NCBI GenBank assembly: GCA_947483975.1
Contig: CANKOL010000004.1
Span: 1-42,271, forward strand
From: Sandaracinaceae bacterium
GTDB taxonomy: Bacteria > Myxococcota_A > Polyangia > Polyangiales > JADJQN01
Length of the DNA: 42,271 nucleotides
Direction: 5' to 3'
Part shown: one piece after another, positions 1-11,204 of the stretch
Numbering within the stretch: the first letter of the stretch is position 1
How the letters are laid out: the number at the start of each line of letters is the position of its first letter
Program-made: the position numbers and the translations under genes
The notes under the pieces: generated by a model
Seen by the model: the letters and a program-made list of their open reading frames with translations, nothing else
Database searches by the model: none
Told to the model about the DNA's origin: nothing

Positions 1-146
1 CCGTCCGCTACCCGGAGGCTGCGTAATGCTGTGTCCCGAGAGACCATCGGTAAGCCGTGTGCGGGAAATCCGCACGCACGGTTTGAAAGGGGGTCCTGCC
101 CTTTCACTGATGAACTTCATCAAATGAAAGAGCAGGATCTACCAAT
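1..146 (+). mobile_element. Group II intron, 3' end only (end of intron-encoded RT ORF, domain V, domain VI, 3' splice site)
   Basis: Domain V hairpin 52-84: AAGCCGTGT-GCGG-GAAAT-CCGC-AC-GCACGGTTT, with AGC triad at 53-55 and AC bulge at 74-75. Domain VI 89-143: GG/CC, GGGTCCTGC/GCAGGATCT, CTTTCA/TGAAAG, TGATGA/TCATCA, with unpaired A141 as branch-point candidate. Ends ...CCAAT (AY) at 146. AT-richer than the flanking DNA. Confidence 0.9.
3..26 (+). CDS. C-terminal fragment of the intron-encoded reverse transcriptase/maturase (partial, ...VRYPEAA*)
   Basis: Stop codon 25 nt before domain V, where a domain IV ORF normally ends. Only 7 codons are visible, so the call rests on position. Confidence 0.55.
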   Translation, partial: VRYPEAA

Positions 147-2004
147 GAAACTCGACCGCAGGGTGTCTCTCGCGTTCGCCTCTGGGTTCTTGGCGAGCGC
201 GCTCGCGCTCAGCGCGTGTGGGGATGACGCGCCCGCGTCCGTCGACGCCGGAGCGCCGGATCTCGGGCCGGTGTGCACCTACGACGGGGGCGACGAGGCG
301 CCGCTCGCGGAGCCCGAGCGACACACCGCGCGGTGGGCGTTTCGCCCGTGGATCTCCAAGGACATCTCGGACCGCGCCGACACGCTCGCGTTCGTCAGCG
401 GGTTTCGAGAGCGCGACATTCCCGTCGGCACCGTGGTGCTCGATAGCCCCTGGGAGACTCACTACAACACCTTCGTCGTGAGCCCGTCGCGGTATGGCGA
501 CTTTCCTTCGCTGGTGTCGACGCTGCACGCCGAGGACGTGCACGTCGTGCTCTGGATCACGCCGCTCGTGAACCGCCGCAGTCAGGACTACGAGACGGGC
601 GGCGACACCTACGTCGGCGCGTCGCCGAACCTCGCCGAGGGGCTCGCGTGCGGGTTCTTCGTGGAGAATGGGCTGTCGTTCCCGTGGTGGAAGGGGAACG
701 GCTCGGCGGTGGACTTCTTCGACGCGCGCGCGCGCGGCTGGTGGCACGCGCAGCAGAACGCGCTGCTCGAGGCGGGGCTCGATGGCTGGAAGCTCGACTT
801 CGGCGACGAGTACGTGACGCGCGACCCGCTGACGACGGACGCGGGCGAGGTCACGCATCAGGCGTATTCAGAGGCGTATTACCGGGACTTTCTCGCGTAT
901 GGGCGGCAGCAGCGTGGGCGTGACTTCGTGACGATGGTGCGGCCCTACGACCGCTCGTATGGCTTCGAGGGGCGCTCTTATGCGCGCCCCGAGCACGCGC
1001 CGATCGGCTGGGTAGGGGACAACCGCCGCGACTGGATCGGGCTCGAGGACGCGCTCGATCACATCTTCCGCTCGGCGCTGGCGGGCTACGTCGTGCTCGG
1101 CTCGGACCTCGGCGGCTACCTCGATCGCGACGACCTCGAGCCGGCGATCACGGTGCCCTTCGACAGCGAGACCTTCGCGCGCTGGACGGGCGTGAGCGCG
1201 CTGATGCCGTTCATGGAGCTGCACGGCCGCGACAACCTCGCGCCGTGGACCGTGCCCGACCACGCGGACGAGACGGTCGTGCTCTATCGCTATTGGGCGA
1301 AGCTCCACGACGCGATGGTGCCGTTCAACTACTCGCTCGCGGAGGAGGCGTACGCGGGCGCGGCGGGCATCCTCCGCCCGGTGCAGGCGGACGCGGCGAG
1401 CTGGGCGGGCGACTGGCGCTACCTGCTCGGGGACGCCTTCCTCGTCGCGCCCGTGGTCGCGGCGGTCACCTCGCGTCAGGTCGCGCTGCCGAGCGGCGCG
1501 CGCTGGTACGACTGGTGGGCGCCGAGCGCCGCGCCCCTCGACGGCGGCACGACGGTGACCGCGGACGTCAGCGTGCGCGGACGCATCCCGCTCTACGTGC
1601 GCGAGGGCGCCATCGTGCCGCTCGACGTCGTGGACGACGCGAACGGCCTCGGCACGGCGGCGAGCGCCGGCGCGCTCACGCTGCTCGTCTGGCCCGCGAG
1701 CGCGGAGACGGGCTTCGTGCTGCACGAGGTCGACGACACGACGACGCAGCTTCACGCGCAGCAGACGCCGACGGGCCCGCGCGTCACGCTCTCGCGCACG
1801 GTGCGCCCGACGCTCTTGCGCGTGCGTAGCGACGTGGCGCCGCGGGCGGTGCGTGACGACGCGATGGCGCTGACGGTCTTCGGGGACCGGGTCGCGTTCG
1901 ACGCGGGGACGAGCGGCGTCTTCTACGAGGCGGCGACGTCGTCGCTGTGGATCAAGCTCGAGGCGCGCGCCGCGGCGCGCACGGTCACCGTCGAGGTGCC
2001 GTAG
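145..2004 (+). CDS. Glycoside hydrolase family 31 (alpha-glucosidase/xylosidase-like) lipoprotein
   Basis: GH31 motifs: GIPV-like DIPVGTVVLDSPW, nucleophile region GWKLDFGDE, acid/base WVGDN, GSDLGG, YLLGDAFLVAPV, IPLYVREGAIVP. Lipobox LSAC. Start moved from 31 to ATG 145 because 31-144 is intron RNA. Confidence 0.85.
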   Translation: MKLDRRVSLAFASGFLASALALSACGDDAPASVDAGAPDLGPVCTYDGGDEAPLAEPERHTARWAFRPWISKDISDRADTLAFVSGFRERDIPVGTVVLDSPWETHYNTFVVSPSRYGDFPSLVSTLHAEDVHVVLWITPLVNRRSQDYETGGDTYVGASPNLAEGLACGFFVENGLSFPWWKGNGSAVDFFDARARGWWHAQQNALLEAGLDGWKLDFGDEYVTRDPLTTDAGEVTHQAYSEAYYRDFLAYGRQQRGRDFVTMVRPYDRSYGFEGRSYARPEHAPIGWVGDNRRDWIGLEDALDHIFRSALAGYVVLGSDLGGYLDRDDLEPAITVPFDSETFARWTGVSALMPFMELHGRDNLAPWTVPDHADETVVLYRYWAKLHDAMVPFNYSLAEEAYAGAAGILRPVQADAASWAGDWRYLLGDAFLVAPVVAAVTSRQVALPSGARWYDWWAPSAAPLDGGTTVTADVSVRGRIPLYVREGAIVPLDVVDDANGLGTAASAGALTLLVWPASAETGFVLHEVDDTTTQLHAQQTPTGPRVTLSRTVRPTLLRVRSDVAPRAVRDDAMALTVFGDRVAFDAGTSGVFYEAATSSLWIKLEARAAARTVTVEVP

Positions 2005-9269: not shown

Positions 9270-11204
9270 GTGGGGGACCTGACCGGCGAGACGCTGCTCG
9301 AGAAGTACAAGATCACCGGGCTCCTCGGCCGTGGCGGGATGGGCGCCGTCTATCAAGGGACGCACCTGCGTACGGGCCGCAAGGTCGCGGTGAAGGTGCT
9401 CGACGACCGCTTCCTCGCGAATCGCTCCATCGTGCAGCGCTTCGGACGCGAGGCGCGCTCCGCCAGCTCGATCCAGCACCCCGGCATCGTGGAGGTCCTC
9501 GACCTCGATCAGCTCCCCGACGGCGCGCCGTTCCTCGTGATGGAGCTCCTCGACGGCGAGACGCTCGGCAGCTTCATCGAGCGCAAGCAGCGGCTCTCGC
9601 AGTCGCAGGCGGTGGAGATCTTCGATCAGCTCCTCGAGGCGCTCGAGGCGGCGCACGAGCGCGGCATCGTCCATCGCGATCTGAAGCCCGACAACATCTT
9701 CCTCCTGCCGCCTTCGCACTCCGGCAAGCGCGCGGTGAAGATCCTCGACTTCGGCATCTCGCAGAAGGCCGATGAGGTCCGCTCACACCTGACGCAGACG
9801 GGCGCCGTCCTCGGCACGCCGCACTATATGTCGCCCGAGCAAGCCCTCGGCGAGAGCGCCCTCGACGCCTGCGCGGACGTCTACGCGGCGGCGGTCGTGC
9901 TCTACGAGTGCGTCGTCGGCGAGGTCCCCTACGACGCCCCGAACTACAACGCGCTGCTCCAAGCGATCCTGCGGGCGTCACCCGCGCGACCCCGTGACCG
10001 CGGCGCGAAGATCGAGCCCGCGTTCGAGGCCGCGCTCCTCGCCGGCATGGCGAAGGAGAAGTCGAAGCGTCCGCAGACAGCCGCCGCTTGGCGCACGATG
10101 CTGCTCGACGCGGCGAGCGGCGCTCCGATCCGCGATCCGCGGCCGTCGCGCGAAGAAACGCCCGCGCCCTTTCCGCAGCCGAGCCTGCCCGTGGCCGCAT
10201 CGCCGCCGAGCGAGGCGAGCGCCACCTCGTCGCTCCTGAGCGAGCCTCCGCCGGTCTGGGGTGAATTCGCGACGCTCGGCAAGAAGGCCCCGTCTCCCGC
10301 CGCGGTCGCGCCCGCGGCCCCGCCGCTGCCTGACGCGACGGTCGGCAATCCGACGCCCGCAGAGCGAGTCTCGGTGCCGCCCCCTCCGGTGAATTCGACG
10401 GCTGGCAAGGAGCTCGAGGACTTCGGCTTCGATCCTGTCGGGCCGGCCCTCGAGCTCGATGACTCTGCGCTCCCCGTGCCTGGTCGCGGGCGCGTCGGGC
10501 AGGCCCCCGCCGTTCGCGGGCGCAGCTACGGAGGCACGCTCCAGGCCGTCAACCCTTCGAGCACCACGGGCACCCACGCCGCTCAGGCGCCCACCGGCTC
10601 CGGGCCGCGCACCTCGCCGAGCGGGACGATGGAGGCTGTCGCGCCGCGACGCTCCTCGAGCAGCGCGATCGCCGCGGTCGCGCAGCCAGCGCCGGCCGGG
10701 GTCGAGGATACCTCGCTGCCGGGCGGCGACCTCCCGCTGCCCGACGACGAGCCGTCGCCGCCGTCCGCTCCCGCCCCTGCCGCCCGACCCGCGCAGCGCG
10801 TCCACGACCTCATCGACCGCGTGATGTCGCTCCCGCGCGCGGTGCACCTCGCCGTGGCCGGGGCGTTCGCGCTCGGCTTGCTCATCCTCGGCATTCGTCT
10901 GGCCGTCGGCCGCGGCGACGAGACAGAAGTTCCGGCCGTCCCGCCGCCTCCTCCCAACCTCGCCGGGCCGGTCCCACCCTCTGCGCCGGAGGAGCCGCAG
11001 ACCGTGCTCGTCGACGTGTCGGGCCTGCCGCAGGACGCTCGCGTGAAGCTCGACGGGCTGCCCGTCGGCGCGCTGCCGTTGCGCGTCGGTCGCGGCGAGC
11101 ACCACGTCCTCGTGATCGAGGCGCCCGGCTACGACTCACGGCGCGTACCGATCGCCCCGCTTCAGGACCTGCGCATCTCCGCCGAGATGCGGCTGACCCG
11201 GTAG
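9270..11204 (+). CDS. Membrane Ser/Thr protein kinase with Pro-rich linker, TM helix and PEGA-like domain
   Basis: Intact [31 protein letters not shown]; hydrophobic segment near the C-terminus; SD GAGGAG upstream. Confidence 0.92.

Follow-up and report, generated by a model that had tools for sequence, protein, structure and literature searches.

The window analysed here is a whole contig of 42,271 nt from a Sandaracinaceae bacterium. It begins inside a group II intron, and the gene that follows the intron encodes a glycoside hydrolase of family GH31. The sequence ...GCAGGATCTACCAAT stops at position 146, and G147 finishes the ATG at 145–147. The tail reads ...CCAATG, and ATG145 is the first codon of the GH31 lipoprotein gene. 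The features of the region are as follows.

1..26, + strand: last codons and stop (TAA, 24–26) of the intron-encoded reverse transcriptase (RT)/maturase ORF, ending in ..VRYPEAA; these C-terminal codons and this stop also stand before domain V in full-length relatives, and the remaining intron lies off the contig
27..50, + strand: 3′ side of domain IV and linker to domain V, placed by position relative to domain V and conserved among copies
51..85, + strand: domain V, the catalytic hairpin, with the AGC triad at 53–55 and a 2-nt bulge at 74–75 (RF00029 match; fold)
86..88, + strand: linker J5/6 (GAA), placed by the fold and conserved in most copies
89..143, + strand: domain VI, a long hairpin whose inner part (100–131) varies and whose basal stem is conserved (fold; compensatory changes at no fewer than four pairs)
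134..137, + strand: AGGA, Shine-Dalgarno-like, 7 nt before the ATG and paired with U94–U97 of domain VI; present in 53 of 78 copies, the others covarying with the partner strand
141, + strand: bulged adenosine, candidate branch point; no other base on the 3′ side of the basal stem is unpaired
144..147, + strand: intron 3′ tail A-AUG with the intron-borne start codon 145–147; within an intron variant the 5′ codon varies but the 3′ codon does not; 3′ splice site after G147 (favoured) or after U146
145..2004, + strand: GH31 glycoside hydrolase gene with lipoprotein signal peptide, the host gene and 3′ exon (Pfam PF01055, 7e-46, and PF21365; N-terminus; orthologue start)

A first-pass annotation of this DNA had recognised a group II intron 3′ end with domains V and VI and a branch-point candidate at A141, and the Rfam match, the fold and covariation in 78 copies all bear this out. 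Rfam model Intron_gpII (RF00029), run as that annotation had suggested, matched window positions 50–107 with 42.5 bits, above the gathering score of 40 (E-value 2.5e-6). In this alignment the domain VI part of the model is placed on the inner hairpin; the identical copy with which contig C229 begins is matched over 50–149 with 44.5 bits. Folding of positions 50–150 (MFE −48.8 kcal/mol, z = −7.76, none of 200 shuffles folding equally well) gives domain V at 51–85 and domain VI at 89–143 with the single bulged base A141. The basal stem of domain VI is preserved by compensatory changes in 78 copies with 42 distinct stem versions, at pairs 92–139 (GC/AT), 94–137 (TA/CG), 95–136 (CG/TA) and 96–135 (CG/TA/TG), and the bulged base is A in 77 of the 78. 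The short domain VI ending at 107 was dropped in favour of 89–143 on the strength of the C229 match, the covariation and the fold. The same fold and covariation agree with the earlier placement of AGGA inside the domain VI stem. Its role as a conserved Shine-Dalgarno sequence is doubtful, as its conservation is that of a stem partner and 25 of the 78 copies have TGAA, AGGG, AGAA or other sequences in its place.

The ORF that opens at ATG145 has 619 codons with Pfam GH31 domains and the N-terminus MKLDRRVSLAFASGFLASALALSAC. The protein of its orthologue in G007 begins with MKLRR. The Pfam domains, the N-terminus and this orthologue agree with the start codon and lipoprotein signal peptide assigned earlier. 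The in-frame upstream extension of the ORF, KPCAGNPHARFERG, is domain V read as codons, as had been supposed. The sole GH31 orthologue found is 63% identical, too distant for a comparison of the flanks at an intron-free site.

Just the final 8 codons of the RT ORF are present in the window. Four contigs of the assembly open with the same 148 nt. Overlaps of 148–149 nt are typical of its contig ends (8 of 11 like-starting groups and 14 of 24 end-to-end overlaps), and hence the cut at base 1 is an assembly artefact. The contig starts inside the intron merely because the assembly broke at a repeat.

Junctions and the insertion site

All six copies of the intron 3′ end in this genome end on a start codon followed by an ORF (...CCAATG or CCCCATG) and diverge directly after it. 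Two of them, on C39 and C15, are old remnants with identities of 94% and 80%. Six contig ends carry a start codon and then a 5′ portion of the same lineage, GUGCGUCGUGAC..., which begins with GUGCG, is about 144 nt long and is identical in all six. One of these six 5′ junctions (C178) has GTG, and the four 3′ junctions of the same young family all have ATG. The intron body with the RT was not found in the genome bin. Upstream of the C39 and C15 copies no D1–D4 match was found that would indicate a full intron; the lineage profile matches just the last ~100–170 nt of these copies, and the ORFs upstream of the C39 copy encode Lcl_C proteins, not an RT. An attempt to pair the 5′ and 3′ junction contigs of this genome through the flank in G001 returned no match.

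The same ending was found at 13 loci from the first relatives and in an order-wide survey of 80 loci, where 71 of 71 3′ junctions end on a start codon (67 ATG and 4 GTG). Loci in this survey were found via the intron 3′ end and at most two places were scored per genome, so it is not a complete census, and since the copies are related, the counts overstate independence. Outside the order, within the phylum, six of six 3′ junctions also lie on a start codon. The expectation of the first-pass annotation that other copies would sit at start codons, and that 5′ portions of the intron would exist, was thus borne out both in this genome and in relatives, where full-length copies occur; these portions start with GUGCG.

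The 5′ junctions follow an equally narrow rule. At 55 of 58 candidate junctions the flank consists of TAnnnT, a spacer of 6–8 nt (6 nt in 32, 7 nt in 14 and 8 nt in 9) and ATG or GTG, followed by GUGCG. The TAnnnT layout was found at 177 of 13,487 control ATG/GTG sites (1.3%) taken from these sequences. Seven of seven 5′ junctions outside the order fit the rule with spacers of 5–7 nt. The GUGCG start of the intron is invariant apart from one decayed copy. The host genes are dozens of unrelated genes with only this layout in common, and in the present genome TAnnnT peaks about 4-fold at spacers 6–9 before the starts of long ORFs. Judged from sequence, TAnnnT followed by 6–8 nt and a start codon is the predicted layout of a leaderless gene, with TAnnnT as its −10 box.

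The box belongs to the host. Intron-free moaC orthologues of one G045 target read TAGGCT-7-GTG, TAGGCT-6-GTG, TACCTT-6-GTG and TATCAT-7-ATG, and the intron-free orthologue of the C94 gene in the same genus reads TACGCT-7-GTG. G045 carries eight copies of about 99% identity, all at TAnnnT-N6-8-ATG. A −10 box carried by the mobile element was rejected because flanks differ among these near-identical copies and the intron-free orthologues have the box. These comparisons also disagree with the earlier proposal that splicing restores a native leader with a ribosome-binding site: the 5′ exon consists of TAnnnT, 6–8 nt and the start codon, and the orthologues show the same leaderless layout and no native leader.

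Exon-binding site, ribozyme body and reading frame

A domain I loop, GCCGAGCCGC-UCAUGUCAC-GGCGAAGGC, is complementary to the last four exon bases in 30 of 32 copies, and in six of six further copies outside the order. CAUG occurs with C-AUG, CAUU or CAUC with G-AUG, and CACG with C-GUG; the three CAC introns all sit at GUG, and A:C mismatches are absent. This covariation of the loop CAUN with the exon N-AUG/GUG marks an exon-binding site (EBS1) of only 4 nt. A candidate EBS3 of a single base, U or G in the loop CAGA-N-..., agrees with the first base of the exon in many copies but not in about 8.

Full-length relatives match the Rfam models D1-D4-4 (65–76 bits) and D1-D4-6. The intron is about 2058 nt long, with about 560 nt before the RT domain and, close to the 5′ end, a variable hairpin of about 40 nt. 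The RT of the G045 copies has the Pfam domains RVT_1 (3.9e-33) and GIIM (5.6e-18); no HNH/En domain was found in it with Pfam, and the ORF ends about 45 residues past GIIM. Its best matches among solved structures are group IIC RTs (7uim, 4e-57; 6ar1, 1e-52).

The frame set by the host start codon is conserved through the ribozyme. In 21 of 27 full-length copies there is no stop in the first 220 codons from this codon, the other two frames having 3–14 stops, and 18 of the 27 are open as far as the RT stop (628–672 codons). Indels among diverged copies are of 9 and 24 nt. An unrelated intron of similar G+C content has 2, 8 and 7 stops in its three frames. The remaining six full-length copies have stops in frame, and three of them (G067 twice, G033) look otherwise intact with a single stop at codon 172, which suggests that the RT can probably start internally too; a conserved GAGGGAAUG lies about 190 codons into the frame. 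A search for RNA evidence detected the intron only as small shares of metagenome and metatranscriptome runs. Metatranscriptome contigs of relatives from four RNA runs are 85–99% like the intron but gave no usable starts or joints, and such contigs cannot show starts or splicing.

A different account of the site rule is a serious alternative, even if we lean against it. The intron would insert at any N-ATG with a specificity of 4–5 nt, and the start-codon and promoter pattern would be survivorship, only transcribed, translated and harmless copies multiplying. The recognised sequence is indeed very short, no protein or RNA element able to read the −10 box was identified, and an in-frame RT ORF with a donated start codon would be useful only at a leaderless start codon. 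However, the eight copies of G045 are young and not one of them lies elsewhere than at the TAnnnT layout. Neutral intergenic or antisense insertions would moreover be expected to remain unpurged, and none was seen among loci found via the intron 3′ end, with no more than two scored per genome in the large survey.

The intron-borne start codon and the splice register

The codons at the two ends of one copy can differ: the 5′ and 3′ codons are GTG and ATG in five copies, ATG and GTG in two, and GTG and GTG in one. The downstream codon therefore belongs to the intron. Target-site duplication of ATG was ruled out by the seven copies with unlike codons. The registers ^ATG and A^TG were ruled out by the same seven copies and by the GTG 5′ junction of C178 as against the uniform ATG of the 3′ junctions.

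The first-pass annotation had placed the insertion at AT^G, within the initiation codon of an ordinary gene with a leader and a ribosome-binding site, the last two intron bases providing AT and either splicing or melting of domain VI acting as a switch. Its claim that the start codon takes its A and T from the intron stands. The register is probably ATG^ rather than AT^G; no product is altered either way. ATG^ fits better given the canonical GUGCG 5′ end, the four base pairs of EBS1 with the exon including the G, and a branch A 7 bases from the 3′ end, as in an unrelated intron on C37.

One terminus is unorthodox in either register. The tail CCA-AUG ends in AU if cut after U146 and in UG if cut after G147 (four copies have GUG); an ...AUG end breaks the AY rule, and an ...AU end means a GGUGCG start. 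For the γ–γ′ pair, J2/3 reads GGAACACGAGAG, where C45 (partner G147) and A47 (partner U146) are both possible. An insertion history with a canonical site at each end (following the 5′ AUG and following AAU) was discarded, as it needs an extra G that is absent from the moaC orthologues. AT^G has points in its favour: with an ...AAU end the intron would obey the AY rule and retain pairing between its first G and penultimate A, the C before the AUG complement in the domain I loop may act as a δ base of the IIA type opposite exon +1 = G, and AGGA is paired in domain VI. Comparison of DNA does not separate it from ATG^, natural start codons ending in G. We nevertheless consider the AT^G account unlikely. 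The 5′ flank has neither leader nor ribosome-binding site, with the −10 box 6–8 nt before the codon; the intron would begin with GGUGCG in spite of the near-invariant GUGCG; the branch A would be merely 6 bases from the 3′ end instead of 7; the G067 intron would end in GU; and AGGA is missing from about a third of copies (25 of 78).

Remnants lacking most of domain I make up 22 of the 71 surveyed 3′ junction loci, and in 17 of the 21 that could be evaluated the start codon of the remnant still opens an ORF that has no stop within the retrieved DNA; the C39 and C15 copies are such remnants. That the window copy is itself such a dead, 5′-truncated remnant, now serving the GH31 gene as 5′ UTR and start-codon donor, would agree with the frequency of remnants, with the 147 nt that are all that is visible and with the absence of an RT-bearing body from the bin, but is improbable, because four contigs with identical 148 nt and six ending in the identical 5′ portion point to recent longer copies collapsed by the assembler, and the old remnants, unlike these contig ends, have diverged.

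Proposed mechanism and known introns

Positions 1–147 of the window are probably the 3′ end of a young, multi-copy group II intron that is sited behind leaderless start codons and carries a start codon of its own. The window copy would be full-length or ORF-less and would belong to a lineage with an endonuclease-less RT that is widespread in the phylum. The lineage would occupy a single type of site, immediately downstream of a leaderless start codon, and base pairing between the CAUN loop and N-AUG would make the host start codon itself the intron-binding site. Transcription from the host promoter would begin at or beside that codon, leaving a 5′ exon of about 3 nt, and the intron frame, unbroken from its first base through domains I–III into the RT, would be translated from the leaderless AUG of the host. 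The intron ends in its own start codon (...CUACCA-AUG, rarely GUG). Splicing would regain the original leaderless mRNA, and in an unspliced or unspliceable copy an in-frame start codon would still be available to the gene.

How the site is chosen can be proposed only tentatively, and the following scheme is rather doubtful as a whole. The RNP may home to leaderless first codons via DNA opened by transcription initiation, where the sense strand is exposed beside the bound −10 box and the 4-nt EBS1 could find N-AUG at +1 to +3. The scheme further holds that the 5′ exon is 3 nt long, that the RT is read from the host AUG, that the intron ends in AUG instead of AY and that the spare start codon outlives the intron as a fixed 5′ UTR. 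Bacterial group II introns would then have a fourth way of choosing targets, in addition to specific homing sites, terminators and attC sites.

A clade of IIB1 introns, described by Michel in 2007, is reportedly inserted within or beside start or stop codons. The present intron resembles these in its insertion at an initiation or termination codon and in an intron terminus that rebuilds a working codon, here by supplying AUG. In the Avi.groEL and EcKTE56.groEL introns, UA and the G of the intron rebuild a UAG stop (Gomes et al. 2025, PMC12584367). The introns of this clade have a CL1 RT with a C-terminal endonuclease domain, a 5′-subterminal insertion (subdomain Ia) of 300–700 nt and long EBS–IBS pairings with homing to one gene; in contrast, the present RT, judged by its Pfam domains, has RVT_1 and GIIM only, domains I–III take up about 560 nt in total with the ~40-nt 5′ hairpin, and a 4-nt IBS1 serves dozens of unrelated host genes.

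The endonuclease-less RT and the very short IBS1 (3–4 nt) recall group IIC (bacterial class C), as does the targeting of a generic gene-expression signal rather than a gene, which gives many sites per genome. The insertion sites of group IIC introns lie downstream of terminator hairpins or attC sites (Zimmerly and Semper 2015, PMC4424553). A conserved hairpin was not seen in the 5′ flanks at the 58 candidate 5′ junctions. Unlike group IIC, the present intron has a promoter-proximal start codon as its site, a larger ribozyme that is matched by D1–D4 models 4 and 6 of Rfam, and an RT frame fused to the exon. In the yeast mitochondrial introns aI1 and aI2, which belong to the organellar IIA type and interrupt a long coding exon, the intron protein is likewise in frame with the upstream exon, through the 5′ domains of the ribozyme. 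The intron ORF is continuous with the upstream exon frame in both cases, but the ‘exon’ here amounts to no more than the start codon of a leaderless mRNA in a bacterium. In the literature searched, no account was found of a generic intron lineage that targets start codons or leaderless genes.

The usual view is that bacterial group II introns persist either by keeping out of genes or through homing to a single long and specific site. The present lineage does neither: it occupies the three bases at which many unrelated genes are most sensitive, and appears to compensate for this by giving back a start codon. Start-codon seating with a replacement codon would be a new way of choosing and exploiting landing sites. 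If the inferences hold, the promoter and start codon of leaderless mRNAs would constitute a new target rule, a natural ribozyme would work with a 5′ exon of about 3 nt and a 4-bp exon-binding site, and a bacterial intron protein would be read in frame from the host initiation codon. The remnants, close to a third of the sampled copies, would then mark a route from introns to permanent host 5′ UTRs and start codons. Since EBS1 is short and readable, mutations could put the start-codon preference to a direct test, and the intron may serve as a marker of leaderless genes in a phylum with few mapped transcription starts.

The intron 3′ end and its copies in the genome

The contig opens within the 3′ end of a group II intron. 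The earlier reading of its first 147 nt, made from the sequence alone, was borne out on re-inspection, and so was its call of a GH31 gene whose product has a lipoprotein signal peptide.

Features of the intron 3′ end and the adjoining gene
1–26, last codons of the reverse transcriptase (RT) ORF and its TAA stop, as in full-length relatives
51–85, domain V, from the RNA fold of 50–150
89–143, long domain VI with A141 as its sole bulge, from the same fold
from ATG145, GH31 gene of 619 codons with a lipoprotein signal peptide

The Rfam group II model, run as the first-pass annotation had proposed, matches positions 50–107 with 42.5 bits (curated cut-off 40) and extends to 149 on the identical copy opening contig C229. 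The fold of 50–150 has a z-score of −7.76, with none of 200 shuffles equally good. The GH31 orthologue in the related genome G007 has the N-terminus MKLRR. Within the GH31 coding region, Rfam also gives a match to Transposase-2 RNA below threshold (1656–1723, minus strand; 32.3 bits, gathering score 42.7), which probably arose by chance in G+C-rich DNA.

The window is one entire contig (C4), and its first 148 nt are identical in four contigs (C4, C94, C229 and C103); contig ends meeting a repeat typically share 148–149 nt in this assembly. About 144 nt of the same intron’s 5′ end closes six other contigs, and a lineage profile search found no internal part of the intron in the bin. Therefore, near-identical copies number at least four to six in the genome, and their bodies were collapsed and lost in assembly. 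Two further copies, on C39 (94% identity) and C15 (80%), have the appearance of old 5′-truncated remnants: the lineage profile covers only their last ~100–170 nt, D1–D4 were not found upstream of either, and the ORFs scanned upstream of the C39 copy contained no RT.

At all six 3′ ends in the genome, ATG and an ORF follow directly, as the first-pass annotation had suggested checking, and the sequences diverge immediately past the ATG. The ORFs encode four or five lipoproteins and one Phd/YefM-like protein. At C103:145–429 (locus L004), one of the four young copies occupies the start codon of this antitoxin-like gene of the Phd/YefM type, whose Pfam match (29.5 bits) falls narrowly short of the 29.8 cut-off. 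Contig C37 (16732–18800, minus strand; locus L014) holds another full-length group II intron, unrelated to the first. Its termini are GUGCGCC... and ...GGCUACUCGAU, and its RT frame of 575 codons gives a GIIM match; it interrupts an ORF within a repeated element and does not follow the start-codon rule. The genome also contains a repeat family with a common end of ~430 nt (...GGATGGACTACGCGCC; C203:6157–6600 and 9400–9473, C453:111–537, C250 and C37:15991–16402), probably the terminus of an insertion element; a 47-nt piece of this family adjoins the truncated intron copy on C39.

Distribution, insertion sites and exon recognition

Surveys were seeded from the intron 3′ end. Within the order, 401 genomes were sampled (E ≤ 1e-8, no more than two scored places in each) and 64 contain the lineage; in a phylum-wide sample of 301 genomes (E ≤ 1e-10), 15 contain it (this genome, three more of its order and 11 outside it). 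The copies are related, so counts of them overstate independence. Eight copies, each 2058 nt long and ~99% identical, are present in G045, a complete genome. The 3′ end was contained in 71 of 80 fetched loci, each time with a start codon (67 ATG, 4 GTG); the ORFs behind stay open as far as the fetched DNA extends in 58 cases, are short in 8 and lie at contig ends in 5. The 5′ splice site GUGYG, predicted earlier, was found as GUGCG directly behind the start codon: 55 of 58 candidate junctions read TAnnnT, 6–8 nt, ATG/GTG and GUGCG, and of the three that do not fit, one is probably a spurious motif match. Among control ATG/GTG sites, 177 of 13,487 have the same layout. Ten loci from other orders and classes have the same ends. 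A decayed copy, L151 (genome G357), begins with AUGCG; all other 5′ junctions seen have GUGCG.

Comparison with intron-free orthologous loci gave the same layout. For one G045 target, the moaC orthologues show TAGGCT-7-GTG, TAGGCT-6-GTG, TACCTT-6-GTG and TATCAT-7-ATG and then encode the same residues at the N-terminus; one other has a GGAGG leader instead; the same-genus orthologue of the C94 gene reads TACGCT-7-GTG. TAnnnT in this genome is enriched ~4-fold at spacers 6–9 ahead of ATG/GTG opening 200 or more codons, which suggests several hundred leaderless genes. In standard sigma-70 geometry, the −10 hexamer lies six or seven bases ahead of the first transcribed base, and TAnnnT adjoining the start codon marks leaderless genes in other high-G+C bacteria. 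By analogy, we infer that transcription would start at or next to the 5′ start codon.

In 30 of 32 copies and in 6/6 more, the final four bases of the exon are complementary to a domain I hairpin loop, GCCGAGCCGC-UCAUGUCAC-GGCGAAGGC. CAUG pairs with C-AUG, CAUU or CAUC with G-AUG, and CACG with C-GUG; all three CAC introns are at GUG, and one CAU intron is at GUG with a wobble pair. This complementarity argues that IBS1, the exon segment matching exon-binding site EBS1, consists of the host start codon and one further base, a 4-bp site as short as that of group IIC introns.

The downstream start codon and the splice register

Retrohoming produces no target duplication; both intron junctions bear a start codon. 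The 5′/3′ pairs are GTG/ATG in five copies, ATG/GTG in two (both in genome G067) and GTG/GTG in one; in the present genome, GTG occurs at one of six 5′ junctions and ATG at all four young 3′ junctions. The 5′ codon varies by site and the 3′ codon by intron variant, so the downstream start codon, used by the GH31 gene, is intron sequence. The codon differences within copies thus confirm the core of the first-pass annotation, that the intron supplies the GH31 start-codon bases.

Every natural start codon, to our knowledge, has G as its last base. Comparing DNA sequences therefore cannot separate splicing after G147 from splicing after U146, and the ligated product is the same. Splicing after G147 seems somewhat the likelier: GUGCG, invariant apart from L151, is then the true intron 5′ end, the start codon’s G pairs with the C of EBS1, and the branch A takes the seventh position counted back from the 3′ end, which it also has in the unrelated C37 intron. 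Splicing after U146, as first proposed, fits less well; it would keep the AY rule, the intron ending in AU, and the C of EBS1 could instead be an IIA-style delta base. The EBS3 and gamma candidates do not discriminate between the two.

The AGGA at 134–137, previously noted as Shine–Dalgarno-like and paired in domain VI, is the 3′ strand of the basal domain VI stem, where compensatory changes keep the pairing (42 distinct versions). It occurs in 53 of 78 copies; the others have TGAA, AGGG, AGAA or further variants, with matching changes on the opposite strand. The pairing therefore stands, and structure accounts for the conservation better than ribosome binding.

Reading frame, related systems and remnants

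In 21 of 27 full-length copies, no stop interrupts the frame for 220 codons from the host start codon, with 3–14 stops in each of the other two frames, and in 18 of 27 this frame continues to the RT stop. Indels between ~80% identical copies are 9 and 24 nt long. For an unrelated intron with similar G+C, the three frames contain 2, 8 and 7 stops. Codon 172 is the only in-frame stop in an intact-looking sub-lineage (L111 and L112 in G067, L130 in G033); an internal RT start is thus probably also possible, and the sub-lineage may represent a switch to internal initiation. In L111 and L112, the intron’s last triplet is GUG instead of AUG.

In the RT, Pfam finds RVT_1 and GIIM but no endonuclease domain, and the best structure matches place IIC RTs as its nearest solved relatives. 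According to Gomes et al. 2025 (PMC12584367), introns of the IIB1 clade (Michel et al. 2007) occupy start and stop codons of housekeeping genes and combine a subdomain Ia of 300–700 nt with an endonuclease-bearing CL1 RT; this lineage has neither. Three group II target specificities (homing sites, terminators and attC) are named by Zimmerly and Semper 2015 (PMC4424553). Literature searches and term look-ups in PMC8919778, PMC3552965 and PMC4028801 yielded no description of leaderless or generic start-codon targeting.

The 71 loci comprise 30 full-length copies, 14 cut by contig ends, 5 ORF-less with domain I and 22 without most of domain I. Internally deleted derivatives were observed at L082 (G223), L125 (G352), L127 (G340), L096 (G354), L100 (G109) and L142 (G182). 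Some keep domains I–III and V–VI as ORF-less introns of ~1 kb; in others, 70–265 nt of the 5′ end is joined to domains V–VI, forming mini-elements of ~230–400 nt between promoter and gene. Among the 22 copies without most of domain I, 21 were evaluable and 17 have an open ORF behind them. Since such remnant-headed genes can start only at the intron-derived codon, we infer that this codon would function without splicing.
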